A stretch of 64,000 bases of DNA. Origin: Chlamydiota bacterium. Lineage in GTDB: Bacteria; Chlamydiota; Chlamydiia; Chlamydiales; JACKPQ01. The notes beneath the pieces are model-generated. The model was not told the origin of the DNA. It saw nothing but the letters and a program-made list of their open reading frames with translations, and ran no database searches. The translations under genes and the position numbers were made by a program. Each line of letters opens with the position of its first letter. Within the stretch, counting starts at the first letter, position 1. Below, piece by piece: positions 1 through 51,028 of the stretch. The stretch spans positions 129,260-193,259 of the forward strand of contig JAJFLZ010000037.1 of assembly GCA_021772435.1 (NCBI GenBank), read 5' to 3'.

Positions 1-2133
1 ACTAAGTTAAGAGAAATTGAAATCTTAAAAAACGGACTGATAGAGCATTTTGTTAATAAGCCACTAAAACCATGCGATGTTCTTATTCTAGCGCCTAATA
101 TCGCAGAGTATGTTCCCTATATCCAAAAAGTTTTTGGGGATCAGTGTCCATTTAATTTTGTCATTCACGATGTACCGAAACTTTTCGATCGGGCTTTTTT
201 GAAAGCATTAGAAGGACTGATGCATCTTGTTAAGAGCCGAACCTCGCCGCAGGATGTTTTGGATTTTTTTGCAAACCCGTGCGTAAAAAAACAGTGTCAG
301 ATTTCAACAGAAGATCTTTTTTTACTTGAGAAATGGGCAAAAGACTGCGGTGTGCACTGGGGTTTAGATCATGAAGATCGAGATCAACTGCTGGCTTTAC
401 CTGAGTTTGAAGACCCTATGCTAGAAAAGTCTGATTTAGGAACATGGCGATACTGTTTTGATGGATTACTTGCAGGCTTAGCTGTCATTGCAAATGAGGA
501 CGAGCCATGCGATCTACATCCACTCGATTTAGTTGAAAATTCTGTTGCAGAAACGCTTGGTAAATGGATTTGCTTGATACAGAGTTTGCAGCAATCATTC
601 GAACCTATGACTCTCACTGATTGGAAAAAAAGATTTTCATCTTTTGCAATGCAATTTATCGACCCGAGCATCGATCCCGGAGGCTATAAACTCTTTGCTG
701 ACGCATTAGAAGGTTTATCATGTCAAAATAGCTATGTATTGCCTTTTGACTCATTTTGGCAGCGCTTAAAAAACAGCTTAGAAACAAAAACGGGAACTGT
801 GCACGGCAATGATTTAAATGCAGTGCCATTTTGCTCAATGAAAACTGGGCGGGCTTGTCCTGCATCGCTAGTTTGGTGTTTAGGACTGCATGATGGAGCT
901 TACCCTAGATTGCCAACTTCAAATCCGCTTGATGAGATGGGCTATAGTGGTGATCCATGCCCTAGCCATGCAGATGAGGACCGGCATTTGTTTTTGGAGC
1001 TTGTGTTATCCGCTCGCGATACCTTCTGCGTGAGCTACCTCTCAAACTCTGACGCTGATGGAAAACCTCAGGGACTATCGATTGTGGCACAAGAGCTTTT
1101 AAATTATGTGCATTTAGACCTGGCCATTTACCACCCTAACCAAGGGTTCAACCCCTGTTATTTTTCAGGTAATTCTGATTTTAACTCATATGATAAAAAC
1201 GCATTTTCCATTGCAGCAATGGATGAGCAAAAAACAGCGCATTTGATTCCTCAATTTTTTACTAAAGCAGAAAAATCTAGAAAAATAATCCCAAAAGATA
1301 CTCATTTGAGTGTTGAAGATATTGCAGCTTTTGCAAGGCATCCTCTTGCTTATTTTATAAAAAAACGGTTAGGTGTTTACCTGGAGTATGAAGAGGAAGA
1401 TGGAGAATTTCAACTTTCTAGTTTGCACCACTTTCTAGCTAAAAAAAGCCTGTTACACGGCGTGAAGGGCGAGGTGATATCAAGTCTTCAAAATTCTGGA
1501 ATGTTGCCACTTGGTCGATTTGGTGAACTTGCGGGAAAACGTCTTCAGATTCATGCTGAAAATTTCAAGCAAAAACTGGAAGAATTTAACGTTAAAAAAT
1601 CAGATCTATTTCAAATACAGCTACATAAAGCAGATGTAAAGCAGTTTTACATTGGCGAAAAAGAAGTGGGTTTACATGCTCTTGAATTAACGTTATCTGA
1701 TGGAACTGGTGTGTCTATTCATGGAAACATAACGGATGTATCACCAGAAGGTTTATGCGTTCAGAGTAGGGCAGACCTTTCCAACCAAGTTAAAATATGG
1801 CCCCTTATGCTCATCTTGGGTGTTTTGGATGTTTGCAAGCCCCAAGCATTGTTTTTGGAGGACGGTAAAAAACTCGAAATTGATCAAACAAAGGCCAAAG
1901 AGGCTTTGCAACGTTACATAGAATATTTCTTAAGAGCTCAAATAGATCCCTCGCCGTTTATTCCTGGATGGGCAAGCGCTTTTTTAACAAAGTGTCCGAA
2001 TGATTTGAAAACTTCCGATCTTGAAGATCCTTATTTTAAATGGGCCATTGGTGATGATGATAGAATCGATAAGGCGGCATTGTTTGTACGTTGGCAAAAA
2101 GATTTGCAATACGTATTTGAGGATTTAATCTGA
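1..2133 (+). CDS. recC: RecBCD (exonuclease V) gamma subunit RecC, C-terminal ~710 codons; the 5' end lies left of the window
   Basis: Frame 1 is open from nt 1; the ORF-track start at 199 is an internal TTG. Stop TGA 2131-2133 overlaps the recB ATG (TGATG). The call rests on length and on the recC-recB-recD operon context. No sharp motif is readable by eye. Confidence 0.75.
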   Translation, partial: TKLREIEILKNGLIEHFVNKPLKPCDVLILAPNIAEYVPYIQKVFGDQCPFNFVIHDVPKLFDRAFLKALEGLMHLVKSRTSPQDVLDFFANPCVKKQCQISTEDLFLLEKWAKDCGVHWGLDHEDRDQLLALPEFEDPMLEKSDLGTWRYCFDGLLAGLAVIANEDEPCDLHPLDLVENSVAETLGKWICLIQSLQQSFEPMTLTDWKKRFSSFAMQFIDPSIDPGGYKLFADALEGLSCQNSYVLPFDSFWQRLKNSLETKTGTVHGNDLNAVPFCSMKTGRACPASLVWCLGLHDGAYPRLPTSNPLDEMGYSGDPCPSHADEDRHLFLELVLSARDTFCVSYLSNSDADGKPQGLSIVAQELLNYVHLDLAIYHPNQGFNPCYFSGNSDFNSYDKNAFSIAAMDEQKTAHLIPQFFTKAEKSRKIIPKDTHLSVEDIAAFARHPLAYFIKKRLGVYLEYEEEDGEFQLSSLHHFLAKKSLLHGVKGEVISSLQNSGMLPLGRFGELAGKRLQIHAENFKQKLEEFNVKKSDLFQIQLHKADVKQFYIGEKEVGLHALELTLSDGTGVSIHGNITDVSPEGLCVQSRADLSNQVKIWPLMLILGVLDVCKPQALFLEDGKKLEIDQTKAKEALQRYIEYFLRAQIDPSPFIPGWASAFLTKCPNDLKTSDLEDPYFKWAIGDDDRIDKAALFVRWQKDLQYVFEDLI
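1634..1652. repeat. Palindromic element copy (ATGTAAAGCAGTTTTACAT), inside recC, read in frame as DVKQFYI
   Basis: 7-bp arms ATGTAAA/TTTACAT with a 5-nt loop. It is the reverse complement of the copy at 17855-17873. Confidence 0.9.
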
Positions 2134-5100
2134 TGGAAAATTACAACTGCTTAGATCAAAACCTAAATCTTTGGGGACATCATTTTCTAGAAGCATCCGC
2201 AGGTACTGGAAAAACCTTTACGATTGAGCATATTGTTCTGCGACTCCTACTTGAAAAAGACCCTATCGATATCGATCAAATCTTGATTGTCACGTTTACA
2301 AGAGCTGCTACAAGAGAGCTGAAACAACGCATTCAAAATCGACTAAGAGAAGGGCTTAGAGCATTAGAGCAGGGTGAAATTAAATATCCGTATTTAGATC
2401 TTTGCGAAAAAGACAAGGCGTATGCGATCGAGCGTTTAAATTTAGCACTTAGCTGCTTTGACAAAGCTCAGATTTATACCATTCATAGCTTTTGTCATCG
2501 CACTTTGCTTGAAGAGGGTTTTGAAGCGGGAGTTTCGCTTGATCTATCAAACCCAGATGATTTAGGGACCTTTGCATTTCGCGAGTCGCAAATAAAAGAT
2601 TTTTTGCGAACAGGAATAAAGCCTGAGTTGTTTGCCCCCAGCCAAATTGAAAGAGTACTCCAGGCATGTGGAGGTAAAATCCAGAGATTAATTGCACGAA
2701 TTTCTCAACTGGACGATGAAGCTCAGCCTATTGCTCTACCAGTACAAGAGACGCTTAAGCAATTTAATTTAGCTTTAAATATGCTGCCTGAAAAAGCAGA
2801 GTGTGTGTTTGACGAACTTTGCCTTATCACAGGTCAATTTAAAGGAGTTTGTGATCGCAGTGGAGCATTTATATCATCAATTGAGCTACAAATTAAGCTT
2901 TTAGCTGAGATCATCGAATCGCAGAAGATCACATTGGATCAAATGGATGTGCTTTTGGGATCTAGTCCTAACTTGATCTTGCAATTGAACCTGGACAATC
3001 GAAAAAAAAGAGATTTTGAAAAGGTTTTACCTTTGTACCATGCTTGGATTCTTGCAAATATTTATCCTTTAATTGACGAGGCAATCAATCCAGATCATAT
3101 TCTTAGACATATGGGTGTGCTTTGCAAAAAACGCCTTGAAGTTGCCAAAGAAGTACATGGAGTCATCTTTCCCGATGATCTATTGCAGCAGATGCACTGT
3201 GCTTTAGAAAACCCTTTAGTTGCAGAAAAAATCAGGCAAAAATACAAAGCAGCTATTGTCGATGAATTTCAAGATACAGACTCTATTCAATGGTCGATTT
3301 TTCAAAAGTTGTTCATGTTTCCCAGTAGTGAAATTCCAGCATTTTATCTGGTTGGAGATCCAAAACAGTCCATTTATGCCTTTCGAAAAGCGGATCTTTA
3401 CACCTATTTAAAAGCGCAAGAAAAACTGGGTTTACAAAGCAGAAAAATGCTCAATACGAATTATCGAAGCTCAAAAGAGCTCATCGATGGGCTCAATACT
3501 TTGTTTGCACATGAAAAAGCCGGCAGCTGGTTACAACTTCCCTCTAAAGAGGCTTGTATTCATTATCAGCCGGTTTTATCAAGCCAAGAAACTGAGCCGC
3601 TTGGTGACGATAAAAAAGCTGTGCATATTTTAAAAATCGATGATCCTAAGGCACGTAGCGTACCTTCAAAGGATCTCGAAGAGCGAATACTTTTTCCATA
3701 CATTGCATCTGAGATCAAAGCGTTGGGCTTGGGATTTTCATCTTTTGCCATTTTGATCAAAGACCGCTATCAATCGATGCGCCTCCAGAAATATTTTAAG
3801 CGCATTGGCATTCCTGCAATCACACAAAGTGGTATTTCCGTATGCGCATCTAAGGTTTATTTATTTTTGAATGCTCTTTTAGAAGCGGTCATTAGACCGA
3901 GTAACCTTGGAGCCATTAAAAAGCTTTTATCAGCTCCTATTGTCGCTTGGAATTATCTAGATCTTTTGCCGGAAAATCATGGTCAACGCATTGTTGACAT
4001 CTCTTCAGAGCTTCATAAGTTTAAAGAGATCTGGGAAACGCAAGGGTTTGCAGCGTTTATCAATGCAGCGCAAGCTTACTCATTTGGTCACGACATGAAT
4101 TTGATTCAGCTGCTTGCAGTTGAGAAAGAAAATTATGTCGATTTCACTCACCTGATCGAACTGCTACTGGAAGAAGAAGGTAAAAGACCTCATTCGATGC
4201 GTGATTTGCATCAGGTATTTAAACGTTTTAAACAGATCAATCCAGATCACCATCCTCATATGCGACAGCGCAAAGTCTTTGATGAGAGTGCTGTCACCAT
4301 CATGACAACGCATATGAGTAAAGGACTTGAATTTGATGTCGTATTTGCATTGGGAATGGGGTGTCGACATAGTGGGCTTGCAGATCTTGAACTCGAAGCA
4401 GAAAAACTAAGACTATTTTACGTTGCGCTAACAAGAGCCAAAAGACGTGTTTATTTGCCAGTCATTAGCACATCAGGAAAGCCATCTCTGCCGTTTTGTG
4501 CGTCTCCTGCTGAAAAGTTTTTTGAGGGTTTTGAGGATTTAGAAGAGTTAACCTCGTCTAGTATAAGCGTTGAGGAACTTAATGAGACAATTCAAAGTCC
4601 CAGCTTTACATGTATAGAGAAACCCCAACTGGCTCCTCCAAAAGCGCATGGACTTCATTTTGCGAGACGCTCAATTTCGTCTTATTCTGGGCTCGTTACA
4701 TCTGAATTTGATTTCAATGCTCCAAGACAATCGAAAGATTTTACAGAATTCAATTTACATACCCTGCCAGCAGGAGCTGACACAGGAGTGCTTTTGCATC
4801 ATCTTCTGGAAAAAACCATCGAGATGGGGCTATACCGCGATAGTGAAATCACACGCATTCAAAAATTCGTGCAAAACCAATTGAAGTGCTCTAGTCTACG
4901 ACAGTGGGATGTGGTCATAGCAAAAATTATTTTTGGGATCATGCAAACTCCCATCGACGGTTTTTCCCTAAAAGATGTGCCAGAAAACGCCATCACTCAA
5001 GAGATGGAATTCTTACTTCCGATGGATACTGATTTAATGATTAAAGGATTTGTCGATTTGATTTTTCAATATGAAAACAAAACCTATATTATCGATTGGA

Positions 5101-6795: not shown

Positions 6796-8231
6796 CGAAT
6801 CTTTTGTGTTTAATTACATTTTTATACATTCCCTTATTCGCTGGCACTCGAGATAAGCTTACGATTTTAAAAAATGATATCGAACGCATTATTCACCATG
6901 CTGAAAAAGGCGCAGTTGTAGGTATTGATGTTGTTTCTGTCAAAACAAATGAGCGGATCTACAGCAAAAATCATAAACAACGATTTATCCCTGCCAGCTT
7001 GATTAAAATTTTAACCCTAGGTGCTGCGCTCGATATTCTAGGTATTGACTATGCCTATAAAACGGGCATTTATACCGATGGGAAAATAGAAGATGGCATT
7101 TTGCATGGCAATTTGTACCTGAAAGGGAGCGGAGACCCTAGTTTAGTGACCAATGATTTAGAGCACTTGGTTAAAAATTTACATATGATTGGTATTGAAG
7201 AAGTGAAGGGGTCACTTGTTGTCGATGCTTCTGCTTTTGATTCAACAGCGCTGGCTCCGGGATGGATGGTTGAAGATACGACATTTGTTTCATCAGCCGT
7301 TCCAAGCGCGCTTTCAATCAATCAAAGCTGTTTTGACATCTGGATCAGACCGGCTAATGCTGAATCAGCACCTGCTGTTGTTTTAAGCGATCTGCCTAAC
7401 GTTGAATTGCCATTCCTTATTGATAACCAGACATTGACGCTTTCAAATATTCAAGATAGTAAGCAATTAGAAATTACGACTGACAACAAAGGCAAACAAG
7501 CTGTTATCCGAATAGCCGGAAATTTGAATTTGCAAAGCGCGCCACAGCTGCGGCGCGTTCCAATAAAAGATCCGGCGATCATGGCTGGATCGATTATAAA
7601 AGAGTTTTTTAAAAGACATCAAATGACTTTCCGCGGAGCCGTGCAAGAAGGCATGACACCTGTCAATGCCTTGGTTCTTGCAGAGCACTCCTCAGACTCA
7701 CTGCTATCGATCGGTCAAAAAATGTGCAAGGAATCGGATAATTTTTTTGCACATTGCTTATTTAAGACTTTAGGCAAAGAAGTTCAAGGTCCTCCAGGTT
7801 CATGGCAGTCTGGAAGCCAGGCTTTGCGAGAGTTTTTAGCAAATAAGGTGCGACTAGAACCATCTGACATGGTTCTTTTAGATGGAAGTGGTTTATCGAG
7901 ATACAATTTAATGACACCCGCGCAAATTGTCGAATTTTTATCTTGGGCTCATCACAATGTCTCAATTGGCTCAGAGTTTAAAACGACATTTTCCATGGCA
8001 GGCATTGATGGGACATTAAAAAACCGTCTGCAGCCATTGCAGGGAAAACTGCGTGCTAAAACAGGTACGATGACAGGTGTTAGCAATCTTTGTGGATATG
8101 TTTTCACAAAAGACGGCGAAGAGTTGGCTTTTACGATTATGGTTAACGGATCGACAAAAGAATCTAAAGAAATATATAAGCAACTTATTGACCCCATTTG
8201 CATGGAACTTGCCAATTTTACAAGGCGTTAG
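6783..8231 (+). CDS. dacB: D-alanyl-D-alanine carboxypeptidase/endopeptidase, PBP4 (peptidase S13) family
   Basis: Hydrophobic N-terminus LLCLITFLYIPLFAG. Penicillin-binding triad: PASLIKILT (SxxK), KESDNFF (SxN), RAKTGTMTG (KTG). AGGAG lies 7 nt upstream of the ATG. The start overlaps the recD end by 13 nt. Confidence 0.8.
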   Translation: MRRLTNLLCLITFLYIPLFAGTRDKLTILKNDIERIIHHAEKGAVVGIDVVSVKTNERIYSKNHKQRFIPASLIKILTLGAALDILGIDYAYKTGIYTDGKIEDGILHGNLYLKGSGDPSLVTNDLEHLVKNLHMIGIEEVKGSLVVDASAFDSTALAPGWMVEDTTFVSSAVPSALSINQSCFDIWIRPANAESAPAVVLSDLPNVELPFLIDNQTLTLSNIQDSKQLEITTDNKGKQAVIRIAGNLNLQSAPQLRRVPIKDPAIMAGSIIKEFFKRHQMTFRGAVQEGMTPVNALVLAEHSSDSLLSIGQKMCKESDNFFAHCLFKTLGKEVQGPPGSWQSGSQALREFLANKVRLEPSDMVLLDGSGLSRYNLMTPAQIVEFLSWAHHNVSIGSEFKTTFSMAGIDGTLKNRLQPLQGKLRAKTGTMTGVSNLCGYVFTKDGEELAFTIMVNGSTKESKEIYKQLIDPICMELANFTRR

Positions 8232-9001: not shown

Positions 9002-9118
9002 TATTTTTTTAATACTGAAAAAATAATTATATGGAAAGAGTTCAGGTTATTTATACCGAAGTAGATTTAAAGACAGAAGTTAATCAAAGGAGCTCTTCAA
9101 ATTTTTTAATTGAAACAA

Positions 9119-9555: not shown

Positions 9556-10029
9556 ATGTCGATAGCAAAGATAAAAATTGAAAAGGGATTGATCGTATGG
9601 GCTCTGCTTTTAGGTGTGAGCTTCGGAATGGTCTGTTGGTATGGCTGTCAATTTCTTAAACAATTTTATATATACAAAACCCTGACTGCCGAAACACCTG
9701 CTCAAGTAACAGCATGGGGTATCGATAAGGTCAAAGAGGGTGAATTCATTGTATATGCTAAATACACTTATTGGTTGAACGAGCAAGCTTTTACTGGGAC
9801 GACAGCATTTAAAAAAATAACTTTTACTAATCAATTGGCTGCAAAAGAGCATCTGCAGAATTGGAAAGCCGACAACTGGATTACTTATTATAACCCTAAG
9901 AAGCCGTCAATATCTACGCTCCAAAGACCCTTTCCATTAAAAATATTACTACACATGCTGATTGGTATTGCCGTATCGATTTATTTTCTGTACTTGAAGC
10001 GGTATCTAGCTGCGTTTCGCGTTGCGTAG
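9556..10029 (+). CDS. Hypothetical membrane protein (TM, ~100-aa soluble domain, TM; DUF3592-like topology)
   Basis: 157 aa. N-terminal TM segment LIVWALLLGVSFGMVCWYG and C-terminal TM segment ILLHMLIGIAVSIYFLYL. No catalytic motif. Confidence 0.5.
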   Translation: MSIAKIKIEKGLIVWALLLGVSFGMVCWYGCQFLKQFYIYKTLTAETPAQVTAWGIDKVKEGEFIVYAKYTYWLNEQAFTGTTAFKKITFTNQLAAKEHLQNWKADNWITYYNPKKPSISTLQRPFPLKILLHMLIGIAVSIYFLYLKRYLAAFRVA

Positions 10030-10929
10030 AAGTGCTGCTTTTAAATGTTTATCATGTAAAGCCACGATATTTTTAAAAAGAGTTATCCATATTTTTTTAG
10101 TTTTTTGTCTTTTTCCTTTTTTTTCTAAATGGGTTAAAAGGTCGGAAAAATCAGGATCACGCCATATACGAAACAAGAGATCTCCACTGAAAAAAACGGG
10201 CCAATTTTCAATTCTGTCAGTCAAAGATTTGGGGGACTTTTGAAACATATCTTTTTTAAAATAATAGTGTTGCGTTAGATGAATTGGGCATTTTTTGCCA
10301 ATGTAAAACCGCTTTACATCTGAGATGAGCTCGAGTTGGTCGTATATCCACCCTTTTCCCCTAGGGTCAATGTTTGTATAGTAGCTTGGGAATTTTCGCA
10401 GATGCCTTTCAGAATCGGATAATCTTCGCTTATTAAAATTTTTTTCATGCAAAATCCAAACCAATAAATACCCCGTTCTTGCATACGCTTTTTGTCTGGC
10501 TCTCACTTCAAATAGTGAGATCGGTGAGCATTGGACTTCAAAAATGAGTTTTTTTGATGGCACGACGACATCAGCAAAGCGGTTAACTTCAGGAAAGTAA
10601 TGTTCCATATGTGCATCGGGAAATATTTTTTTTAACCGGAGCTGGGTTTGTAGGTGGTAAGGACTTTTGCTGTGATTTGTGCAGTTTGTTTTTGGATTAG
10701 GGTGGAAAAAGTGCAGCTGATATTGCTTTCCTCCTCGCAAACGAACAGTTCCCTGGCACCCGGGACAGGTGTAGTCTTTCCCTTTTTGGGCATAAAGCGC
10801 AATCACGCTTTTTCCGTCTTCTAGCGCTATTAGTTGCATAGATAACCGATTGTAAAGAAATGTTTGTTTTTTTGGTGCTAAATATATATGATCCGGGGGA
10901 TTGACAAAAAGCGCCTCAATGCGAGACAA
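10006..10929 (-). CDS. coiA: CoiA-like competence protein family (zinc-ribbon plus PD-(D/E)XK-like nuclease core)
   Basis: YTCPGCQGTVRLRGGKQYQLHFFH, SPYHLQTQLRL, EHYFPEVNRFADVVV, LIFEVQCSPIS, GYLLVWIL. These follow the motif order I recall for streptococcal/Bacillus CoiA (CPxCG..V.LR.G....HF.H; ES.EH; E.YLPEI.Q.ADVLV; EVQCSPLS; GY.V.WLL). Confidence 0.7.
   Translation of the reverse strand: MSRIEALFVNPPDHIYLAPKKQTFLYNRLSMQLIALEDGKSVIALYAQKGKDYTCPGCQGTVRLRGGKQYQLHFFHPNPKTNCTNHSKSPYHLQTQLRLKKIFPDAHMEHYFPEVNRFADVVVPSKKLIFEVQCSPISLFEVRARQKAYARTGYLLVWILHEKNFNKRRLSDSERHLRKFPSYYTNIDPRGKGWIYDQLELISDVKRFYIGKKCPIHLTQHYYFKKDMFQKSPKSLTDRIENWPVFFSGDLLFRIWRDPDFSDLLTHLEKKGKRQKTKKIWITLFKNIVALHDKHLKAALLRNAKRS
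10301..10319. repeat. Palindromic element copy (ATGTAAAACCGCTTTACAT), inside the coiA-like gene, read in frame as DVKRFYI
   Basis: The 32 nt at 10292-10323 match the reverse complement of 1630-1661 at 29/32. Confidence 0.9.
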
Positions 10930-10968: not shown

Positions 10969-12630
10969 ATGAGCAAACCCAGTTTTGGAACCTTTGACCC
11001 TCAGCATCAACAAAAAATTGAAGAACTTGTTGCAATTGCTAAAGATCAAGGGTTTGTCACCTATGAAGAAATAAACGAAATTCTTCCCATGACTTTCGAC
11101 TCCCCTGAGCAGATTGACCACGTGTTGATCTACCTCAGTGGAATGGATATTCAAATCCTCAATCAAGCGGAAGTGGATAGACAAAAAGAGCGGAAGAAAG
11201 AAGCCAAAGAGATGGAAGGCTTACCGAAGCGCACTGAAGGATCATCGGATGATCCTGTACGCATGTATCTCAAAGAGATGGGATCGGTTCCTCTACTCAC
11301 GCGTGAAGAAGAAGTTGAAATTTCAAAGCGTATTGAAAAAGCGCAGCTTCAAATTGAAAGAATTATCATGCGTTTTCGCTACTCTGCTAGAGAAACCATT
11401 TCAATCTGTCACTACCTTGTTTCAGGAAAAGATCGCTTCGACAAGATCATTGCAGAAAAAGAAATCGAAGACAAAGCTGTCTTTTTAAAACTACTTCCAA
11501 GATTACGTGAACTGTTGCTCGAAGAAGATCAAATGCTAGAGTCACAACTTGTTCAATTGCGTAATAACAAGCTGAAAAAAGTTGATCGCGTTAAAATCAC
11601 TGAAGAAATCGAAAAGAGCCGTATTCGTACCCAAGCTTATCTTCGCCGCATGCACTTTCGCCATAATATTATTGACGACTTTGGTGAAGTCATCATGGCA
11701 GCGTATGAGCGATTTACCGCTCTAGAAAAAGAAATTCAAGAATTGGTGCCCAGAGCAGAGAAAAACCGCTTTGCAGCAGCTAAACTTAAGGCAGCACAGC
11801 GCCGGCTTTACAAGCGCGAGCTAGCTGCAGGCCGCACACTAGACGAGTTTAAAAAAGACGTGCGTATGTTGCAACGTTGGATGGATAAGAGCCAAGAAGC
11901 CAAGCGCGAAATGGTCGAATCCAACCTCCGTCTCGTTATCTCGATTGCGAAAAAATACACTAACCGTGGTTTGTCTTTCCTCGACCTGATTCAAGAAGGC
12001 AACATGGGCCTTATGAAAGCGGTAGAAAAGTTTGAATATCGCCGAGGTTACAAATTTTCAACTTATGCCACTTGGTGGATTCGCCAAGCAGTCACACGAG
12101 CGATTGCAGATCAAGCTCGCACGATTCGTATTCCAGTGCACATGATCGAAACGATCAATAAGGTGCTGCGGGGTGCAAAAAAGCTCATGATGGAGACAGG
12201 CCGTGAACCCACTCCAGAAGAGCTGGCTGATGAGCTTGGTTTAACTCCTGAGCGTGTTCGCGAGATTTACAAAATTGCTCAACATCCGATTTCCCTCCAG
12301 GCTGAAGTTGGCGATAATGGTGAAAGTACGTTTGGTGACTTTTTAGAAGATAAAAATACGGAATCACCATCAGAAGCAACTGGTTATGCGATTTTGAAGG
12401 ACAAAATGGGTGAGGTTCTCTCAACACTTACAGATCGAGAGAGAACAGTCCTCATCGAGCGCTTTGGCCTGCTCGATGGTAAACCTAAAACTCTGGAAGA
12501 GGTCGGCTTAAGATTCAACGTGACAAGAGAGCGCGTGCGTCAGATTGAGGCTAAAGCGCTACGTAAAATGCGCCATCCTACGCGAGCTAAACACTTAGAA
12601 GCTTTCATGGAAATGATCGAACACGAGTGA
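10969..12630 (+). CDS. rpoD: Primary RNA polymerase sigma factor (sigma-70/sigma-66)
   Basis: [41 protein letters not shown] (region 2). [30 protein letters not shown] (region 4.2). AGGAG lies upstream of the ATG. Confidence 0.95.
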
Positions 12631-12672: not shown

Positions 12673-12745
12673 TGGAGCGTAACGGAGTCGAACCGTTGAC
12701 CTCAACAATGCCATTGTTGCGCTCTACCAACTGAGCTAACGCCCC
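12673..12745 (-). tRNA. tRNA-Ala (anticodon GGC)
   Basis: Reverse complement: GGGGCGTTAGCTCAGTTGGTAGAGCGCAACAATGGCATTGTTGAGGTCAACGGTTCGACTCCGTTACGCTCCA. It has a 7-bp acceptor stem with the G3:U70 Ala identity pair, anticodon stem CAACA/TGTTG, loop AT-GGC-AT, T-loop GGTTCGACTCC and discriminator A. The 3' CCA is not encoded. Confidence 0.93.
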
Positions 12746-17271: not shown

Positions 17272-18342
17272 TTCAGAATAGGTATCGAAATAGTTTGCTA
17301 TAAGTGTTGTCAGAGCATTTTTGATTGTTTCATCATCTGCTGGATCAAAGGTGTAATCGTAGAGATTTTGACGGGCTGTTTGGAAGGCACTTTGGTCCTC
17401 TTCTAAATGGTCTTCCATGATGGAATAGATCTCATGGACTGAATCCATGGGGACGGACAGGCCACAGCGCTGAAGAGGGTTTTCTCTTTCTGGGCCGATG
17501 AAGAACATAGGACGGTTGTAGGTTAAAAAGTCGTAGCCAATGGATGAGCGATCGCCCATGTAAACCCGGATGTTTTCCAAAATAGGGTAGATGAGGGGAA
17601 ATTCGGAAACGAAGTGGACTGATGGGTGATGTTCGTATCTAGCCAAGATCCGTTCCACTTCCATGATGTGTTGAATGCTTAGGTTGGGATGAATTTTAAC
17701 GATGAGGTTATACTCGTCTGGGAGCTCGTCGATGAGTGTTGGGCAGGCGTCGAAAAAGGTCGTAGGCTCGACCCCATCTGACCAAGTGGGTGCATAGAGG
17801 ATAAATTCTTTTTTTTCAGCAAATTGCGATGCGATTTCAGTCTCAAATAAGTTCATGTAAAACTGCTTTACATTACTATGGAGCCGGTGGCGGTAATTAC
17901 CAAGGCCAACTGTCCCCTGCAGATTGTCAAAAACATTGTGATCACGGAAAAAGTCCCGCATCTTCTGACCGTAGACCAATGCATACTTTTCATCCTTGAG
18001 ACTCTGGTTCGAAAGAGATTTTGTGCCCTTATCAGAGCTGCCGTGTGGACACCAGATCGAAAGAACGTGCTTGCCGTAGAGGTGTTTGACACTGAAAAGG
18101 AGTTTAGATAGGAGCATGGTTGGGAGACAGGAAAATACAACGTCGTAGTGCTCTGCAATATGCTTTGCAAGTTCTACTTCATCGACATGAAACACGATGA
18201 GCGTGGGATAGTATTTTTTGGCTATTTGAGACAAGGACTCTTCTGTGACAAGCAAAGGCATTTCCAAAAGAATGCACAAAGGAGCAATGTGATCGAGATG
18301 ATGGAGAGCCTGGCCGTAAATAAATCCAACAGGTGTTCTCAT
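17257..18342 (-). CDS. TagB/TagF-like CDP-alditol phosphotransferase family protein (paralog 1)
   Basis: 361 aa. LYAPTWSDG, KIHPNL and GDRSSIGYDFLTYNRPMFF match the order of Glyphos_transf motifs (YAPT(W/F)R, HP, D.SS...D(F/Y)..L.KP). CPHGSSDKG is shared with the neighbouring paralog. Confidence 0.55.
   Translation of the reverse strand: MRTPVGFIYGQALHHLDHIAPLCILLEMPLLVTEESLSQIAKKYYPTLIVFHVDEVELAKHIAEHYDVVFSCLPTMLLSKLLFSVKHLYGKHVLSIWCPHGSSDKGTKSLSNQSLKDEKYALVYGQKMRDFFRDHNVFDNLQGTVGLGNYRHRLHSNVKQFYMNLFETEIASQFAEKKEFILYAPTWSDGVEPTTFFDACPTLIDELPDEYNLIVKIHPNLSIQHIMEVERILARYEHHPSVHFVSEFPLIYPILENIRVYMGDRSSIGYDFLTYNRPMFFIGPERENPLQRCGLSVPMDSVHEIYSIMEDHLEEDQSAFQTARQNLYDYTFDPADDETIKNALTTLIANYFDTYSELDDL
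17855..17873. repeat. Palindromic element copy (ATGTAAAACTGCTTTACAT), inside TagF-like paralog 1, read as NVKQFYM
   Basis: An exact 19-mer shared (as reverse complement) with the recC copy. Confidence 0.9.
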
Positions 18343-32301: not shown

Positions 32302-32303
32302 CC

Positions 32304-33488: not shown

Positions 33489-33498
33489 GAGAAACAAC

Positions 33499-33879
33499 AT
33501 GTTAAAAAAGAAAAAAAAGCGCAGCATGACACTGCTTGAAATCATGGTCGTCATCTTCATTATCGGAATTATCGGTAGCGTGATTGGCTACAACATGAAA
33601 GGCAGCATGAAAAAAGGCAAACAATTCAAAACAGACTACGCCGCAGCCAAAATCGCTGAAGTCCTCACCATGGAATGTGAATTAAACGGTTTAAATCCGC
33701 ACGCTGTGGCCAAAGACTTTGAAAACGTACTAAAAGAATCAGGCATGGTCAAAGATGTCGGTAAACTCATCGTCGATGGTTACGGAGAAAAATATAAAGT
33801 CTCCTATGTTAAAGACACCTTTAAGGTCACATCCAGCCATGTTACAAAAGAAAAACAGACGACCACTGACACTGATTGA
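33499..33879 (+). CDS. gspG: Major pseudopilin-like protein (GspG-like)
   Basis: 126 aa. Basic leader MLKKKKKRS followed by MTLLEIMVVIFIIGIIGSVIG. This is a type IV pilin-like N-terminus with the conserved Glu, but it lacks the canonical Gly-Phe cleavage context. Confidence 0.75.
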   Translation: MLKKKKKRSMTLLEIMVVIFIIGIIGSVIGYNMKGSMKKGKQFKTDYAAAKIAEVLTMECELNGLNPHAVAKDFENVLKESGMVKDVGKLIVDGYGEKYKVSYVKDTFKVTSSHVTKEKQTTTDTD

Positions 33880-34294
33880 GATCCTGCTTTGTGTGGGACT
33901 CATTGCTATGGCGGGTTCGCTCTTTGGTGTTAAAGGCAAGCAGCTATGGAAGCGGCATCAATTTTTTTCTAGCGTCGATAGACTGTGTGAAGAGCTGACT
34001 CTAACGCGGCACTTTGCACAAAGTCTGCGCGCTGATGTCGATCTCTATCTAATCAAAGAAAAAGATGGCGTGCGCTTGATCCGGCAATTTGACGAGCCGG
34101 GAATGCTCAAGATGAAAAACGCCTTTCCAAGTGAACTATTTTTCAAAAACATAGTCATCACCGACGATCAAAACCTATTTTTTTACGGCAACGGATGGCA
34201 TGATATCGACGAAGAAATACGCATAAAAGGCGTAGAAAATATCACCATCTCTCTTTTACCAGAAAAATTTGCTGCAAAAAAAATTGTAAAATAA
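33839..34294 (+). CDS. Minor pseudopilin-like protein
   Basis: Starting at ATG 33839 gives MLQKKNRRPLTLIEILLCVGLIAMAGSLFG, a pilin-like N-terminus. The ORF-track start at 33755 would bury this motif 28 residues in. Confidence 0.65.
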   Translation: MLQKKNRRPLTLIEILLCVGLIAMAGSLFGVKGKQLWKRHQFFSSVDRLCEELTLTRHFAQSLRADVDLYLIKEKDGVRLIRQFDEPGMLKMKNAFPSELFFKNIVITDDQNLFFYGNGWHDIDEEIRIKGVENITISLLPEKFAAKKIVK

Positions 34295-37886: not shown

Positions 37887-38450
37887 TTAGATGAATCTTG
37901 CGGTGCATCGGTTAGTTTTTTGTCTGAGTTCAAAAAGAGTTGTGTCGCCATACTTGCGCTCATCAATATAGATAAGATGTTTTAAAGCCTTAAGTTTACA
38001 TGAGGAGCGCTCTTCTAGAAAGATGCGCGTGTTTGGATGGTAGAGAGAGCTTTGATCGAGCAGGTCGAGGATTTTAAGATCACCGCCGTAGGGCGGATCG
38101 ATGTAGATGATATCAAAACATTTGTCTTTAAGCTTTGGTATGGCGCGCTCTACTGTAATTGGATAGACATCGGTGCAGTCTGTTAGGTTTAACTTTTTTA
38201 GATTGCTGAGCAGGCAGGAAATAGCTTCCCTGCTCTTTTCGACAAAGCAAGCGGAAGCGCCGCCGCGGCTGAGAGCTTCAATACCCATCTGACCACTGCC
38301 GGCAAAGAGATCGAGAAAATGACAATCCTCTAAGTCATGCTTACAAATATCAAACAGAGACTTTTTGACTTTGCCTATGGTCGGACGAGTGGATAAGCCT
38401 CTCGGTGCTTTGATCACTTGTCCTTTAAATTTTCCTGCAATTACCTGCAT
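37887..38450 (-). CDS. rsmD: 16S rRNA (guanine966-N2)-methyltransferase RsmD
   Basis: FLDLFAGSGQMGIEALSRGA (SAM-binding site) and IIYIDPPY (the DPPY catalytic motif). The size is typical for RsmD. Confidence 0.88.
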   Translation of the reverse strand: MQVIAGKFKGQVIKAPRGLSTRPTIGKVKKSLFDICKHDLEDCHFLDLFAGSGQMGIEALSRGGASACFVEKSREAISCLLSNLKKLNLTDCTDVYPITVERAIPKLKDKCFDIIYIDPPYGGDLKILDLLDQSSLYHPNTRIFLEERSSCKLKALKHLIYIDERKYGDTTLFELRQKTNRCTARFI

Positions 38451-38470
38451 GTAAAACCGCGCCTACATCT
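38449..38470. repeat. Degenerate palindromic element copy (ATGTAAAACCGC-GCC-TACATCT) between the VWA gene stop and the rsmD start
   Basis: The left arm and loop are identical to the 51-kb copy. The right arm carries GCC in place of TT. It overlaps the rsmD ATG by 2 nt. Confidence 0.6.
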
Positions 38471-41827: not shown

Positions 41828-44614
41828 CTAAATTCCCATTTCGTCTAAAGAGGTTTTAATCTCTTTAGCTTGCGTTTTTACAAAGGACGTAGCCATTTTG
41901 TCTGATCTAACTTCTTCTAATAGACGTCCTGCTTTAAAAACGTGCTCTTGGGCAGCTTCGATGTTTTTGTTTGCTAAAGCAAGCTTGCCTTCAAGCTGTA
42001 GGATTTCAGCGTCTACTAAGCGCATGTAAAGCTGGAAGATATGGTTTTGTTCGGGGTTTTGTTGTAGCGCTGTGTAGTATTCTTGTGAAATAGGATCGTC
42101 ACTTGGACTAAAGTCTTCTTTGATCCGCTTTAAGAAGAATAAGTGACGCTCATCGCGCTCACCTTTAGCTGTAAGTTTTGTTCGAATGTGGGCGTAGTCA
42201 AAAGCAGCTTCTAGGTGCAAAGGCTCCGTTGCTACGTGTTTTTTGATTTGCAGCTCTTTGAGGTTGTTTAAGACACTTACCATTTCAGGATTGTCTTCGG
42301 TTTTACTTTGTTCGTGCATTCCAGCAAAACGCAAGCGTGCTTCTTGTAAGAGCGCTTGATAAGATAGAGGTGAGGGGCTGTATTGCGATGTCTCTGTGAT
42401 GAAGCTGTAGGTGTCGAGAGCAGAGGTGCGATCTCCAGTTTGTTCGTAGGTTTTAGCTAGTTCTAAAAGCGTGTGCCGTTGAAATTTCCATTCCCATTCG
42501 GGTTGAGCATTTTGGTAGGTGGCTAAGCTTTTTAGCAAAGTGATTTTGGGTCCATATTCTCCCCTTTCGTTTAAAAGCTCTGCTAGTTTGAGTGTTTCAG
42601 CTTCTAGAAAGAGAGAGTCTTCGTCGATAGCATTGACTTCCCAAGTGTTTTCATCTGCGAGCACGCCTTTAAACAGGTAGAAAGCTCGCTGGCTTGCTAG
42701 CTGCTCACCATCTTGCGATGTGTTGTTTTTTGCTTGTTCGTAAAAGTAGTTCGCAAGCCACAAACGGTTTTCAGCTTTAATGGTTTGCGTGTCTTTTGAG
42801 ATGGCAGCGTACAGATGTAAAGCCGCTTTACATAGGAAGGCATCGCCGCTTTGACTCAGTGTAGATAATGTGAGGTAAGCATTGTAGAGTTCAAGATGAA
42901 CACTTGCCGTATCGTAATAGTCTGCACCGAGCTCTAATGCTTGTTCGAAGTGTTTGCATACAGGCTGCAGGTCGTGATTGATCTCTTTTGAAGATAGACC
43001 CGCGATAAAGTGCGCTTCAGCAAGGGATGGGTCATCCTGGTAGTCGTTTAAGTAATGTTCCAGTTTGCGATAAGCCACATCGAACAAGTCAAGCTCATAT
43101 GCAATTTTAGCTTGCAATAAGCGGTATTCGCGCTTCTCATCGACGCTCAAGATTCCATCGTTATCTAAAACACGCGAGAGATCATCGTAAAACGAACCTT
43201 TTGAGTAATGGATTTCATCGTTTGTATTCGCTGCTTTAAAGAGATTTAATGATGAAGAGAAAAAGTAGCGCCACGCAATATTAGCACGATCAGATTGGCC
43301 GTAGTAATTTAAAAAACTGCTAAATGATTCGTATGCCTTGCCCCAATCTTGATGATCGTATGTGAGTGAAGCATATTCAAATAACAGACCTTCTTGATCG
43401 TCGTAATCTGGATAGCGAGTCAGTAGTAGTTCTAAATCATTTTGCACAGCCATACGGTCTCCGGCAGCTTTCGCTAGCATAGCGTGTGTAAAAATGGCTT
43501 TAGGCATTTCAGAATCGTCTGAAAATTGCTCACGGAACCTATCAAATGTCAGATTGAAAAGAGTTGGATCGCCTTGATGGTAAGAGGCTGTCATGAGCAT
43601 GAGTAGTGCATTTTTTAAGGAGGGTGTCGCTGCTTCTTCCACTGCTGTGTAGTATTTTAAGTGCTGGATAGCATTTCCGTAATCTTCAACACTGAAGAAA
43701 CTTTTTCCCACGATGAGATTGAAAAGAGGCTGTTTGTCTTCTGGAATGAAGCTGTCGACGTTTTCATATGCGTTAATCACTTCGTTGTAGTGGCCGAGTT
43801 GGTAGTAGATGAGCAGGCGGTTAAAAGTTGCTTCACTAGCTCTATTTCCGCTCATACCGATGATAGTAGAAAAAGTTGTGATAGCTTGGTCTGGCTTAAA
43901 TTGTGCTTGCAAATTGGCGGCGTGGAAGAGGAGCTCTTCGCGCTGGTCGGTGTATTTTTCGGCTAGCTCAAGGTAGATTTTTGCAGCTTCTGGATAATCA
44001 CCAAGTGTGTTGTGAATTTCAGCTAGGGCAAAGCTTGAGATGTCAAAATACGCTGTATTGCTAAGTGATTCATAAAGTGGTTTAGCTGCATTTGATAGGT
44101 GTTGTTTTTGCTCAGGATTAGCAGAAGTCAGTGATCTGCGGAAATAGGCTTCTGCCATGAGGAAACGAAATTCATCACTGCGCTCGTCGATCGATGGATT
44201 GCTGTGTAATAGGTAGGGCTCGCCCTCATGCGTAATGGCTTCATATTTGCCGAGCTCGTAGTAACACTGCAATTTGTTGATCAGGATTTTTTCTCGTACG
44301 TCGCGATTACCAATTTCGGAGTAGAGTGAGAGAGCGTAATCGTAGTTGTCTTTCTGCAAATACAAATCGCCTAAAATTCCCTTTAAATGGTCTTTGAGTT
44401 GGCTATCGGGGTATTTTTCCAAAAATGTCATGATTTGTGATTGAACGATTTGGTAATCGCCATCTTTCCAAAACTCTGCGATGCGTCTGACTAGAAATGC
44501 CTCTTCGTCGCTTTGAGGTTGCATCGATAGGATTTTCACTTGATCTCTTGCGCTCAGCGGTGCTAGGGATGTTATAAGCGTACATGTTGCATATACAAAC
44601 CAACGAATTTTCAT
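41828..44614 (-). CDS. Large secreted tetratricopeptide-repeat (TPR) protein
   Basis: 928 aa. Signal peptide MKIRWFVYATCTLITSLAPLSA. TPR-like helical pairs run throughout (..A.F..A..YY..G.Y..A..). Confidence 0.75.
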   Translation of the reverse strand: MKIRWFVYATCTLITSLAPLSARDQVKILSMQPQSDEEAFLVRRIAEFWKDGDYQIVQSQIMTFLEKYPDSQLKDHLKGILGDLYLQKDNYDYALSLYSEIGNRDVREKILINKLQCYYELGKYEAITHEGEPYLLHSNPSIDERSDEFRFLMAEAYFRRSLTSANPEQKQHLSNAAKPLYESLSNTAYFDISSFALAEIHNTLGDYPEAAKIYLELAEKYTDQREELLFHAANLQAQFKPDQAITTFSTIIGMSGNRASEATFNRLLIYYQLGHYNEVINAYENVDSFIPEDKQPLFNLIVGKSFFSVEDYGNAIQHLKYYTAVEEAATPSLKNALLMLMTASYHQGDPTLFNLTFDRFREQFSDDSEMPKAIFTHAMLAKAAGDRMAVQNDLELLLTRYPDYDDQEGLLFEYASLTYDHQDWGKAYESFSSFLNYYGQSDRANIAWRYFFSSSLNLFKAANTNDEIHYSKGSFYDDLSRVLDNDGILSVDEKREYRLLQAKIAYELDLFDVAYRKLEHYLNDYQDDPSLAEAHFIAGLSSKEINHDLQPVCKHFEQALELGADYYDTASVHLELYNAYLTLSTLSQSGDAFLCKAALHLYAAISKDTQTIKAENRLWLANYFYEQAKNNTSQDGEQLASQRAFYLFKGVLADENTWEVNAIDEDSLFLEAETLKLAELLNERGEYGPKITLLKSLATYQNAQPEWEWKFQRHTLLELAKTYEQTGDRTSALDTYSFITETSQYSPSPLSYQALLQEARLRFAGMHEQSKTEDNPEMVSVLNNLKELQIKKHVATEPLHLEAAFDYAHIRTKLTAKGERDERHLFFLKRIKEDFSPSDDPISQEYYTALQQNPEQNHIFQLYMRLVDAEILQLEGKLALANKNIEAAQEHVFKAGRLLEEVRSDKMATSFVKTQAKEIKTSLDEMGI
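42815..42833. repeat. Palindromic element copy (ATGTAAAGCCGCTTTACAT), inside the 928-aa TPR gene, read as LCKAALHLY
   Basis: The arms extend to ATGTAAAGC/GCTTTACAT. The reading frame differs from the other CDS-embedded copies. Confidence 0.85.
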
Positions 44615-44644
44615 GGACCCACCTGTGTGTTAAGTGTGTTTTTA

Positions 44645-44806: not shown

Positions 44807-44816
44807 TTTTAAGTCA

Positions 44817-45866: not shown

Positions 45867-45898
45867 ACCCCGTACTGTATCTTCTTATTCTTAACTTT

Positions 45899-46345: not shown

Positions 46346-46534
46346 AACTACCTCCATTATTTTGATAAATAACATAATAATATTTAAATAATATAGATTT
46401 TATTCAGGGTTGAGGTTGAAATATTTATGAAGTAATTAATATAAATACACCTATTTTTAAGGTGCATATAGATTGAAATAGCTTGATTTTCGGTGATAGC
46501 ATTTGTTAAAATCAAGTTAAATTAGAAGGTTTGT

Positions 46535-47776
46535 ATGACACATAAGTATATTAACAGATTGATTAGTAACAGGTTAAAGAAGCTTTTTGCTAATTTTCCG
46601 TGTTTGGTTCTTATTGGAGCCAGGCAAGTTGGAAAATCAACACTTTTAAAACATTTATTTCCGGATATTCCATGTGTTGTTTTTGACCCTGTGCATGACA
46701 TCCAAAATGCTAGAGGGGATCCTGAACTCTTTCTAAATAATCACCCACCCCCCTTGATATTAGACGAGGTGCAATTTGTCCCTGAGCTTATTCCTGTGAT
46801 TAAACGCCGTATCGATAAAGATAGAACAAATTCTCAATATATTTTGACAGGTTCGCAACAGTGGGGTGTTCTAAAAAATGTATCCGAAAGTTTAGCAGGG
46901 CGTGCTGTATTAATGCAGCTTGAAGGATTTTCATTGCAGGAAATTGCAACTGTACAGCCTGATGAACCTTGGCTAAAAAGGATGTTGACTGATCAAGTAG
47001 CGTTTTTCAAAGAAAAGCATAAACGTCTTGACTTAACGAATACGTTAAATGGTCAACTCTGGCGAGGATTTTTACCGGAAACTCAATTTTTAGATGCCGA
47101 CATTATTCCTGATTATCATTTTTCTTATCAAAGTACCTATATTGAAAAAGATGTGCGTGTTTTAGGAAATATTTCAGATTTGCAGTCGTTCTCAAGATTT
47201 GTGAAACTATCTGCAGCATTAATCGCAAGAGAGGTTAAATACACAGATTTTGGGAAAGATATTGGCATTACACCGCAGACGTCCAAAAGATGGTTAGAGT
47301 TACTGATTCAAACCTTCGAGTGGTTTGAAATACCGCCCTTCTTTGGTAATGCTGTCAAACGAGTGAGCCAAAGATCAAAAGGTTATTTTTCTGATACGGG
47401 TCAAATTTGTTTTTCTCAGATGATTTCTACACCGAACGCTATCACTTCGCACCCACTTTGGGGATTGATTTATGAAAACGCGGTGATAAGTGATTTACGT
47501 AAACAAAGTTTTTTGATGGAGACACCTCCTCGATTTTATCACTGGCATGTGCACAGCGGTGCTGAAGTTGATTTGATTTTGGAGAGGGACGGTATACTAT
47601 TTCCTATCGAAGTAAAGTCAAAAACCCGCCCTACAAAAAAAGATGCATCTGGATTGGCTGCATTTCGAAAACATTATTCGAAAAAAAAGATTGCTAAGGG
47701 AATTATCATAGCTCCAGCTGAAGAAGTTTATGCAGTTACCGAAGACGATTATGTTATTCCCTGGGACTTGGCTTAG
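46535..47776 (+). CDS. AAA-family ATPase with C-terminal DUF4143-type domain
   Basis: LIGARQVGKSTLLK (Walker A) and LILDEVQ (Walker B). The ~410-aa architecture is typical of the AAA_14/DUF4143 family. Confidence 0.75.
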   Translation: MTHKYINRLISNRLKKLFANFPCLVLIGARQVGKSTLLKHLFPDIPCVVFDPVHDIQNARGDPELFLNNHPPPLILDEVQFVPELIPVIKRRIDKDRTNSQYILTGSQQWGVLKNVSESLAGRAVLMQLEGFSLQEIATVQPDEPWLKRMLTDQVAFFKEKHKRLDLTNTLNGQLWRGFLPETQFLDADIIPDYHFSYQSTYIEKDVRVLGNISDLQSFSRFVKLSAALIAREVKYTDFGKDIGITPQTSKRWLELLIQTFEWFEIPPFFGNAVKRVSQRSKGYFSDTGQICFSQMISTPNAITSHPLWGLIYENAVISDLRKQSFLMETPPRFYHWHVHSGAEVDLILERDGILFPIEVKSKTRPTKKDASGLAAFRKHYSKKKIAKGIIIAPAEEVYAVTEDDYVIPWDLA

Positions 47777-48974: not shown

Positions 48975-48976
48975 GT

Positions 48977-50205: not shown

Positions 50206-50864
50206 TATTTTCCCTCGAATAATTTAAATTCAGCTCGTCGATTTTGTTTCCATGCAGCTCGCGTATGACCCATATCTGCTGGATGCTCTTTTCCATATGA
50301 TGTTGTAAAAATTTGATTTGGGCTTACACCGGCTTTAACTAGCTGCTCACGTACGTAATTTGATCTGCGAGTGCCTAAGGCTAAATTGTAAGCTTCAGAA
50401 GCGCGCTCATCACAATGGCCTTCGACAAAGATATAAATATTGGGGTGTTTTTTCAAATGGCTAGCTAACCGTTTGATTCCTTGTAGGTCTTTTTCTTCTC
50501 TCAAGATATGTTCATCTGTATTAAAGTGCATTGTTCTAAATAGAGCAGCGATCTCTCCAGCTGGCTTGACAAACATTTCGATGCCAGGAACTCTACCCTC
50601 ACCGGGACTTGTCTTCGGTTGAGGAACAGCGAGATGTGCTTTGAGATCTTCGTCTTTAAGTGGAATAAACTCTTCCTCGATTGGACCATAAAAGTCATCA
50701 CCTTCGGCTACCATGCGCGATTCTGATGTTTTGCCAAACAGGGCTTTTCCTTTTCTCTGCAGATATCTAGATGCTGTTTTCGTGTCTTCCCAAACGGCAC
50801 CCGATGAATTTTGGCAACTCGTTATGATGAAGCAAAGTGCTAGTGCAAAAAGCGTTTTTTTCAT
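50205..50864 (-). CDS. pal: Peptidoglycan-associated lipoprotein Pal (OmpA-like C-terminal domain)
   Basis: Starting at ATG 50864 gives MKKTLFALALCFIITSC, a lipobox. OmpA_C motifs: HFNTDEHIL, IFVEGHCDERASEAYNLALGTRRSNYVREQLVKAGV. Confidence 0.9.
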   Translation of the reverse strand: MKKTLFALALCFIITSCQNSSGAVWEDTKTASRYLQRKGKALFGKTSESRMVAEGDDFYGPIEEEFIPLKDEDLKAHLAVPQPKTSPGEGRVPGIEMFVKPAGEIAALFRTMHFNTDEHILREEKDLQGIKRLASHLKKHPNIYIFVEGHCDERASEAYNLALGTRRSNYVREQLVKAGVSPNQIFTTSYGKEHPADMGHTRAAWKQNRRAEFKLFEGK

Positions 50865-51001
50865 GGTATTCCTCTTCAAAAGTGATCCTTCACTCGCTGT
50901 AGCATTTTTAACTGTTTATTATTTTTTCCGCAAGCGTAGTCACTGTTTCGTTGTAAAACAAGGGTAATATATTTGTTGTCAGAGGTTTGAGAGCCAAATT
51001 T

Positions 51002-51028
51002 GCAGATGTAAAACCGCTTTACATCTGC
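51002..51028. repeat. Longest palindromic element copy (GCAGATGTAAA-ACCGC-TTTACATCTGC) in the tolB-pal intergenic gap
   Basis: 11-bp perfect arms. It starts 3 nt downstream of the tolB stop codon on the minus strand. Confidence 0.92.

Follow-up and report, generated by a model that had tools for sequence, protein, structure and literature searches.

The described systems closest to the element reported here are the parS sites of chromosomal partition, as in Spo0J/parS of Bacillus subtilis, which are short, near-perfect inverted repeats numbering between a few and a few tens on each chromosome, and the operators of KorB on the IncP plasmid RK2 (TTTAGCSGCTAAA), which serve both regulation and partition. 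Chlamydiae have no FtsZ, their plasmids lack ParB, and the pathogenic Chlamydia species divide by polarised budding. Here we analyse a 19-base palindrome that recurs in a 64,000-nucleotide stretch of DNA (the window) from a Chlamydiota bacterium (GenBank assembly GCA_021772435.1, contig JAJFLZ010000037.1, positions 129,260 to 193,259 of the forward strand), its distribution in other genomes and its physical link to an operon encoding a ParA-type ATPase and a protein of the CT583 family.

Most chlamydial chromosomes encode a canonical parB, and chlamydial plasmids do not (PMC7846284). The plasmid proteins ParA/Pgp5 and Pgp6 trace back to an ancestral chlamydial plasmid (PMC7846284); plasmids are not maintained without Pgp6, a protein of unknown function (PMC7846284; 10.1101/2024.11.14.623704). 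The signature proteins of the Chlamydiales include CT583 (PMC1403754).

Results

A 19-base palindrome conserved across the Chlamydiota

The window contains six exact matches to ATGTAAARCNGYTTTACAT, starting at 1634, 10301, 17855, 23975, 42815 and 51006, against a mean of 0.00 in dinucleotide-preserving shuffles, and a rescan at one to three mismatches revealed no copies beyond these six. The initial annotation had counted at least seven copies and judged the repeat to be non-random. Its coordinates are all correct, and the shuffles bear out its judgement; six of the seven copies are exact and the remaining one (38449-38470) has decayed, with four mismatches.

When 185,579 species, each represented by one genome, were scanned for the exact pattern, at least 116 stretches matched. 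About 106 of those listed are metagenome-assembled genomes (MAGs) of Chlamydiota, belonging to Parachlamydiales, Simkaniaceae, Rhabdochlamydiaceae, Anoxychlamydiales and unclassified bins, while the ∼10 non-chlamydial matches listed are about what chance predicts for such an amount of DNA. Since the loop is mostly GCSGC in the other chlamydial genomes, the family has as its consensus ATGTAAAGC-N-GCTTTACAT, a perfect 9-1-9 palindrome weakly extended to c-a-A...T-t-g. The window copies represent a dialect of this consensus, in which either position 8 or position 12 has undergone a transition. Thus, the asymmetric loop described initially is a true property of the local dialect but not of the family, which has G at position 8 and C at position 12. 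Similarly, the claim that all six scorable copies carry the same loop on the sense strand was slightly overstated: five of the six read GCNGU, and the 42815 copy reads GCGGC, symmetric apart from its central base.

The repeated palindrome is real and conserved across the phylum. Instead of a mobile repeat family confined to one genome, the pattern scan across species and the comparison of orthologues reveal a phylum-wide cis site kept at orthologous positions. The closest relative among the loci compared is a MAG named 'Chlamydiales bacterium', whose TPR protein and that of the window are 80% identical in amino-acid sequence. We found no description of the motif in the literature searched (sequence strings, chlamydial palindromic repeats, parS, DNA uptake sequences (DUS), Pgp6 and CT583), in line with the initial remark that it was not recognised as a described repeat family.

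The palindrome is tied to a parA-CT583 operon

One position of the site recurs, the junction between the gene of a ParA-type ATPase and a downstream UPF0137 gene (PF03677). The ParA-type protein matches Pfam AAA_31/CbiA, and its best NCBIfam matches are partition ATPases. The UPF0137 protein is the 'CT583 family protein' of NCBI, a chromosomal paralogue of plasmid pGP6-D/Pgp6. This operon was present in 6 of the ∼104 listed 8-kb loci selected by the motif, versus ∼0.4 expected.

To obtain a sample blind to the motif, we retrieved 80 metagenomic loci (813 kb) solely through the UPF0137 protein. The palindrome, with zero to three mismatches, lies no more than 75 nt upstream of the UPF0137 start in 46 of the 80 loci, typically beginning 29-36 nt upstream, and within 260 nt of the start in about four more (46-50 of 80 in total). 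Elsewhere in the same 813 kb there are only ∼11 sites. At the usual junction, the motif's own ATG-TAA (or TTG/GTG-TAA) forms the last codon and the stop of parA, directly followed by the ribosome-binding site of the CT583-family gene. Across 49 non-redundant junction sites from this sample, positions 2-7, 13, 14, 16 and 17 are invariant and only the centre is free. An inverted-repeat site is therefore physically tied to a parA-adaptor operon, an arrangement expected of partition centromeres. The initial statement that the repeat has no associated open reading frame (ORF) is correct inside the window and breaks down at the level of the family.

Two plasmids carry versions of their own. In pPNK (Protochlamydia naegleriophila, 145 kb), the plasmid parA-CT583 operon has two copies of (A/G)TGTGTAAC-S-GTTACACA(T/C) upstream and a third 15 nt downstream. 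These palindromes, ATGTGTAAC-S-GTTACACAT, are located at 2752-2770, 2827-2845 and 4558-4576 of locus L208 (126159, 126084 and 124353 in NZ_LN879503.1). The rest of pPNK contains one further, weak copy with three mismatches, and the chromosomal-type motif was not found on this 145-kb plasmid. Some flanks of the pPNK copies, such as CCAG...CTGG, resemble the CAG...CTG of the window. In the Simkania plasmid pSn, a palindrome ATGTACAAC-T-GTTATACAT (locus L199, 4991-5009) lies ∼100 bp upstream of the plasmid parA. The chromosomal, pPNK and pSn versions have in common the 9-1-9 plan and the outer ATGT...ACAT and differ in their inner bases, as expected of partition systems that must not cross-react. 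The pPNK and pSn palindromes are therefore candidate plasmid centromeres. A search from plasmid Pgp6 for the chromosomal CT583 of Chlamydia species returned plasmid paralogues only.

Selection acts on the nucleotides of the site

The copy inside the TPR gene of the window was followed through evolution. A search with the TPR protein yielded 120 homologues, and the DNA of four orthologues, picked via the protein alone, was fetched. Among the 120 homologues, the peptide FLCKAALHLY is confined to the window's own clade (62-68% identity), more distant ones reading xKAAxHLY. The 19-mer is intact in L202, L203/L204, L207 and L053, whose proteins are 62-80% identical to that of the window, and its nucleotides are also conserved in orthologues L098 and L009. 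The five constrained codons of the site are identical in 20 of 20 comparisons across four orthologues, whereas gene-wide the fraction of identical codons at conserved degenerate residues is 0.44-0.48 for the same orthologues and 0.41 for L205. At the centre of the site, the GCN codon varies (GCG, GCC and GCT). In L205 the site is lost (FLSKAASHLY), and the synonymous positions have drifted too. Judged from these alignments, selection at the palindrome is on nucleotides rather than on protein. Hence, a site at the DNA level can fix synonymous codons within unrelated genes over long evolutionary times.

The possibility of a protein motif was rejected, because the encoded peptides differ by frame (VKxLY or CKAALH) and the codons are more conserved than the protein requires. 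A separate observation concerns the near-identical contigs L203 and L204, which come from different sequencing runs: the central base of the TPR site (11782-11800) is G in one and C in the other, a population-level polymorphism at the sole unconstrained position.

Placement of the copies in the window and in other genomes

The gene contexts assigned initially to the window copies (recC, coiA-like, TagF-like, TPR and gene ends) were as claimed, the host genes being confirmed with Pfam. The recC copy (ATGTAAAGCAGTTTTACAT, 1634..1652, gene on the plus strand) encodes DVKQFYI and falls in a lineage-specific insertion of RecC. The genes hosting or preceding the other five exact copies are on the minus strand. 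Three of these copies are internal: one in the CoiA-like gene (10301..10319), encoding DVKRFYI and with 32 nt in common with the 1634 copy; one in the first gene of a TagF-like glycerophosphotransferase (17855..17873), encoding NVKQFYM and matched by a site at the orthologous position in L103; and one in the 928-aa TPR gene (ATGTAAAGCCGCTTTACAT, 42815..42833), encoding CKAALH. Two frames of the motif escape its own TAA, and the internal copies use both, three being read as (D/N)VK(Q/R)FY(I/M) and one as CKAALH. The remaining two copies are at gene ends. One (23973..23995, core 23975-23993) abuts and overlaps the stop codon of a 748-aa pentapeptide/amidotransferase gene, and the other (51002..51028, core 51006-51024) lies 2-3 nt past the tolB stop, with arms extended to 11 nt and an orthologous copy in L202 and L203/L204. 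The decayed copy (38449..38470), located between the stop of the VWA gene and the start of rsmD, has its four mismatches relative to the family consensus and is intact at the same position in the relative L202 (17019).

Among the matches listed, 114 copies are chlamydial. A simple ORF call places 63 of them within long ORFs, in both open frames, and 51 in intergenic DNA. The intergenic copies keep close to the end of the preceding gene, −6 to about +20 nt from its stop codon; 13 of the 51 sit between divergent genes, and in nine copies the motif's own ATG-TAA serves as the last codon and stop of a gene. Copies recur at orthologous positions across species. Those of gspD (VKQLY), tagF and the TPR gene (KAAxHLY) have arisen by substitution on pre-adapted peptides, with no indels; others lie within lineage-specific insertions of 7-19 residues, in recC (window) and recB (L025 and L080).

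The density of sites differs between regions, with six in 51 kb of the window, four in 23 kb of L202 and two in 23 kb of L203, versus about one per 65-110 kb in the other chlamydial DNA sampled. Likewise, 18 of the ∼104 listed motif-selected loci from other genomes are orthologous to window genes (3-4 expected), covering recBCD, tagF/mutY, gspDEF, rsmD-VWA-TPR and tolQ-tatD-sdhAB. On long contigs the positions of the sites listed appear clustered, which we regard as suggestive only. The gene set of the window should correspond to CT570-CT640 in the C. trachomatis numbering, hemB included. In C. pecorum, oriC is located upstream of hemB (PMC3932018). The GC skew is positive throughout the window, with no switch, and in 8-kb pieces of long contigs the noise is too high for an origin to be placed.

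Other features of the palindrome loci and of the window

The recC and coiA-like copies resemble each other beyond the palindrome. Their surroundings (1628-1662 and 10291-10325) have 32 nt in common, CAGATGTAAAGCRGTTTTACATTGGCRAAAAA, and encode near-identical decapeptides, DVK(Q/R)FYIG(E/K)K. Conversion or a common insertion may account for this resemblance, which exceeds the need of the core motif.

The palindrome is also part of a composite element of ∼95 bp, present in different chlamydial genomes at loci that are unrelated, in which a perfect palindrome is followed by a hairpin, GGGGYCCCYGAAAAYGCNTCRTTTTTGGGG, and then by a second half-site, TTGTATTGCSGCTTTACAT. The hairpin is conserved with compensatory changes and has a T-rich tail, and the right arm of the palindrome recurs with its flank as a direct repeat, of 32 nt in L037 and of 15 nt otherwise. 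The element was located in L074 (2405-2490), L086 (1148-1232), L037 (∼7140-7235), L063 (∼7655-7740) and L109 (∼2520-2600), and in part in L008 (3619-3680). It looks as if a terminator-like cassette of ∼50 nt had been inserted beside the palindrome. The composite element is not found in the window.

The window also holds recBCD, the CoiA-like competence nuclease gene (10006-10929) and an operon for GspD/E/F/G-type secretion (pseudopilus) proteins (28418-34294). The CoiA-like and Gsp genes bear on chlamydial DNA uptake, with no demonstrated link to the palindrome. An ATPase gene of the AAA_14/DUF4143 type (46535-47776), between a glycine-zipper gene and an MFS gene, is probably a recent insertion, since the syntenic loci of relatives (L202-L207) do not have it. 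A tRNA gene (12673-12745, minus strand), between rpoD and an aminotransferase gene, is the sole Rfam match of the window. As stated initially, the window contains no insertion sequence and no cas gene.

Discussion

A putative partition module of the Chlamydiota

We propose, with a probability of roughly 60%, that the palindromes are binding sites of CT583-family proteins belonging to a ParA partition module specific to Chlamydiota, acting as centromere-like sites, as operators, or as both. The palindrome would be a double-stranded-DNA site for a dimeric protein of the module formed by the ParA ATPase and the CT583-family protein. The home copy, between parA and the CT583-family gene, might serve as an autoregulatory operator as well, and the additional chromosomal copies, such as the six of the window, would load the same protein and so become parS-like sites on which ParA acts. 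That the binder is the CT583-family protein we infer from gene linkage, not from its fold, and a function in partition, rather than in regulation alone, is likewise inferred. In the AlphaFold2 model of a CT583-family protein (mean pLDDT 79), a disordered N-terminal tail of ∼40 residues precedes an all-helical body, and the tail carries an invariant K/R-containing peptide. This predicted architecture is compatible with that of a ParA-stimulating adaptor.

Several results weigh against this proposal. The junction site is missing from 30 of the 80 operon loci, in which alternative palindrome dialects were sought and none was found. The operon lies outside the window, and in other genomes genes like those of the window are seldom found less than 10 kb away from it. 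No significant match of the CT583-family protein to ParB, KorB or a known DNA-binding protein was obtained in a PDB profile search or with Foldseek (E≤0.001), the best structural match being Spo0J-parS 4umk_C (E=6.3, TM 0.35/0.43; not significant). A Pfam scan at E≤10 matched the family to PF03677 (UPF0137) only, with no ParB or helix-turn-helix domain, and a regular-expression search found no ParB motifs in the proteins of the listed motif-selected loci. The canonical ParB of most chlamydial chromosomes could be the true partner of ParA or the true binder (PMC7846284), and CT583 of C. trachomatis scored as secreted in one of three assays (PMC12671076). The 7.5-kb plasmids of Chlamydiaceae that were examined contain no comparable palindrome. 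A pure DNA-site model does not predict that copies hug stop codons. Finally, the placement of the window neighbourhood near the replication origin, is no more than plausible, based on Chlamydiaceae gene order and one statement about hemB (PMC3932018).

Weighing the alternatives

A palindrome with dimer-type symmetry and conserved nucleotides would fit equally well an operator, or the site of a nucleoid protein, with no role in partition. CT583 could be a regulator or silencer, ParB could bind a diverged parS, or another nucleoid protein could be involved, in transcription control or in compaction, for example during the developmental cycle. The home site is well placed to control the expression of the CT583-family gene, 13 of the 51 intergenic copies listed separate divergent genes, and no canonical parS appeared in the 1.76 Mb sampled, even though most chlamydial chromosomes have a canonical ParB (PMC7846284). 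However, most sites are intragenic or at the 3′ ends of genes, not at promoters. Moreover, the tie to a ParA-ATPase operon holds on chromosomes and on two plasmids, a class of replicon without parB (PMC7846284), and plasmid-specific variants are typical of partition and incompatibility determinants. We consider this explanation unlikely, although it is the strongest of the alternatives. Somewhat less probable is an RNA element, that is, a transcribed hairpin acting in cis as a 3′-end stabiliser, terminator, processing site or translational coupler of parA and CT583, with a polarity set by a G·U pair on the sense strand. Some features of the window favour it. All five asymmetric copies give a sense-strand G..U, and the two gene-end copies, with their extended arms, fold at −9.0 and −15.7 kcal/mol (z-scores −3.4 and −5.4). 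In addition, the home copy is inside the operon transcript, ∼45% of the copies among the matches listed are intergenic and close to the upstream stop codon, and in a few intergenic copies elsewhere the complementarity extends 5-6 bases into the flanks. Beyond the window, however, the orientation with transcription claimed in the initial annotation fails: polarity is opposite in 9 of the 12 scorable asymmetric copies that lie within or end genes in other genomes, and the orthologous site at the tolB stop has the opposite polarity in L202 and the same in L203. The 51 non-Watson-Crick pairs at the 49 junction sites comprise 15 G·U on the mRNA strand, 9 A·C and 27 that are unpairable on either strand, with no compensatory variation, so that what is conserved is the sequence and not a structure. 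The hairpins of the four intragenic copies are weak, with folding energies of −4.6 to −8.2 kcal/mol, and in three cases shuffled sequence folds equally well or better; no U-tract follows any window copy, and the Rfam scan of the window gave no match at the palindrome. More than half of the listed copies are in the middle of ORFs, where a terminator or processing site would be harmful, and pPNK has sites not only downstream of the operon but also upstream of the par promoter region. An intrinsic terminator in particular was rejected on the grounds of unpairable changes, missing covariation, missing U-tracts and weak intragenic folds.

The insertions of 7-19 residues that hold the recC and recB sites raise the question of mobility, whether as a miniature transposable element, as abutted terminal inverted repeats or as the target of a recombinase or of insertion. 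The 32 nt common to two window copies, the ∼50-nt hairpin cassette adjoining the palindrome in 5-6 loci with a direct duplication of 15-32 nt, and the perfection of all six window copies, none of them degenerate at one to three mismatches, point in the same direction. Nevertheless, the same 19-mer is found across families, whereas miniature transposable elements diverge fast. Sites persist at orthologous positions amid saturated synonymous flanks, those of gspD, tagF and the TPR gene arose by substitution with no indels, solo copies lack target-site duplications, and the window has no transposase or RAYT gene, all of which makes a mobile element improbable. A relation to repetitive extragenic palindromes (REP) and bacterial interspersed mosaic elements (BIME) was rejected, as ∼55% of the listed copies are inside ORFs, the sequence is the same across families and the window proteins contain no transposase domain. 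A DNA uptake sequence marking self DNA for competence, of the type of the Neisseria DUS or the Pasteurellaceae uptake signal sequence (USS), would account for a clade-wide motif found in genes and at gene ends, some of them recombination and repair genes (recC and recB). The window encodes CoiA-like and type II secretion/pseudopilus proteins, and C. trachomatis has a ComEC-dependent uptake pathway (PMC6686042). Such sequences, however, occur about once per kb, versus one site per 10 kb in the window and about one per 65-110 kb elsewhere. Half-sites show no clear excess here (17 ATGTAAA and 16 TTTACAT in 64 kb, counting the six within palindromes, versus ∼8 expected by our own estimate), the functional unit is the full palindrome, and an uptake bias explains neither the plasmid variants nor the specific link with the par operon. 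This explanation, the least probable of all, was rejected for the sparseness of the sites, the lack of a clear over-representation of half-sites and the par-operon tie.

Implications

A binding site of a CT583-ParA partition module thus remains our preferred explanation of the palindrome. We extend it tentatively, at somewhat less than even odds, to the proposal that CT583/Pgp6 proteins are unrecognised centromere-binding ParA adaptors and that ATGTAAAGC-N-GCTTTACAT serves the Chlamydiota as their chromosomal centromere motif, its sites being arrayed in a conserved neighbourhood that is probably origin-proximal. If true, chlamydiae, which divide without FtsZ, would have in this array a means of organising and segregating the chromosome, plasmids would have their own specificity variants, and the essentiality of Pgp6 for plasmid maintenance would be explained. 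The 19-bp cis site also offers a handle for electrophoretic mobility shift assays or chromatin immunoprecipitation with CT583/Pgp6, a potential marker of origin-region dynamics, a stabiliser for shuttle vectors and a landmark in the many MAGs of uncultured chlamydiae.

Comparison with known systems

The palindrome would work like parS and plasmid partition sites. It has in common with parS the short, near-perfect inverted repeat and the copy number, as well as copies that are often intragenic and conserved at the nucleotide level, one of them in or next to the par operon, and a regional clustering. It is not the canonical ParB-parS system, because neither the sequence nor the adaptor family agrees. 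The palindrome is unrelated to TGTTNCACGTGAAACA and has an odd 9-1-9 architecture. The window contains a single match to this canonical parS at three mismatches, which is the level of chance, and the 1.76 Mb of sampled chlamydial loci (L003-L207) contain none at up to one mismatch and as many at two mismatches as shuffled sequence. In addition, the partner of the chlamydial ParA would be CT583/UPF0137, which has no detectable similarity to ParB/Srx or helix-turn-helix proteins.

Type I plasmid partition cassettes and KorB provide a further parallel, with sites flanking a parA-adaptor operon, as in pPNK, and specificity variants among related modules. KorB operators appear to resemble the chlamydial sites in being odd palindromes with a central S and a common AGCSGCT core, dispersed at promoters and elsewhere. 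The difference is that KorB belongs to the ParB family and CT583 detectably does not, and that the chlamydial system is chromosomal and phylum-wide. The sites of the matS/MatP, SBS/SlmA and NBS/Noc systems are similar in occurring as tens of regional palindromes, often intragenic, matS being also an odd palindrome with a free centre; unlike the chlamydial sites, they have no link to a ParA operon, and no homologue of MatP, SlmA or Noc is implicated here. REP/BIME and DUS/USS are likewise short repeated motifs with many copies just downstream of genes, some of them able to form hairpins. In contrast to the chlamydial palindrome, REPs lie outside genes, are imperfect and species-specific, and go with RAYT transposases, DUS/USS are non-palindromic and ∼100 times denser, and both lack the tie to a par operon.

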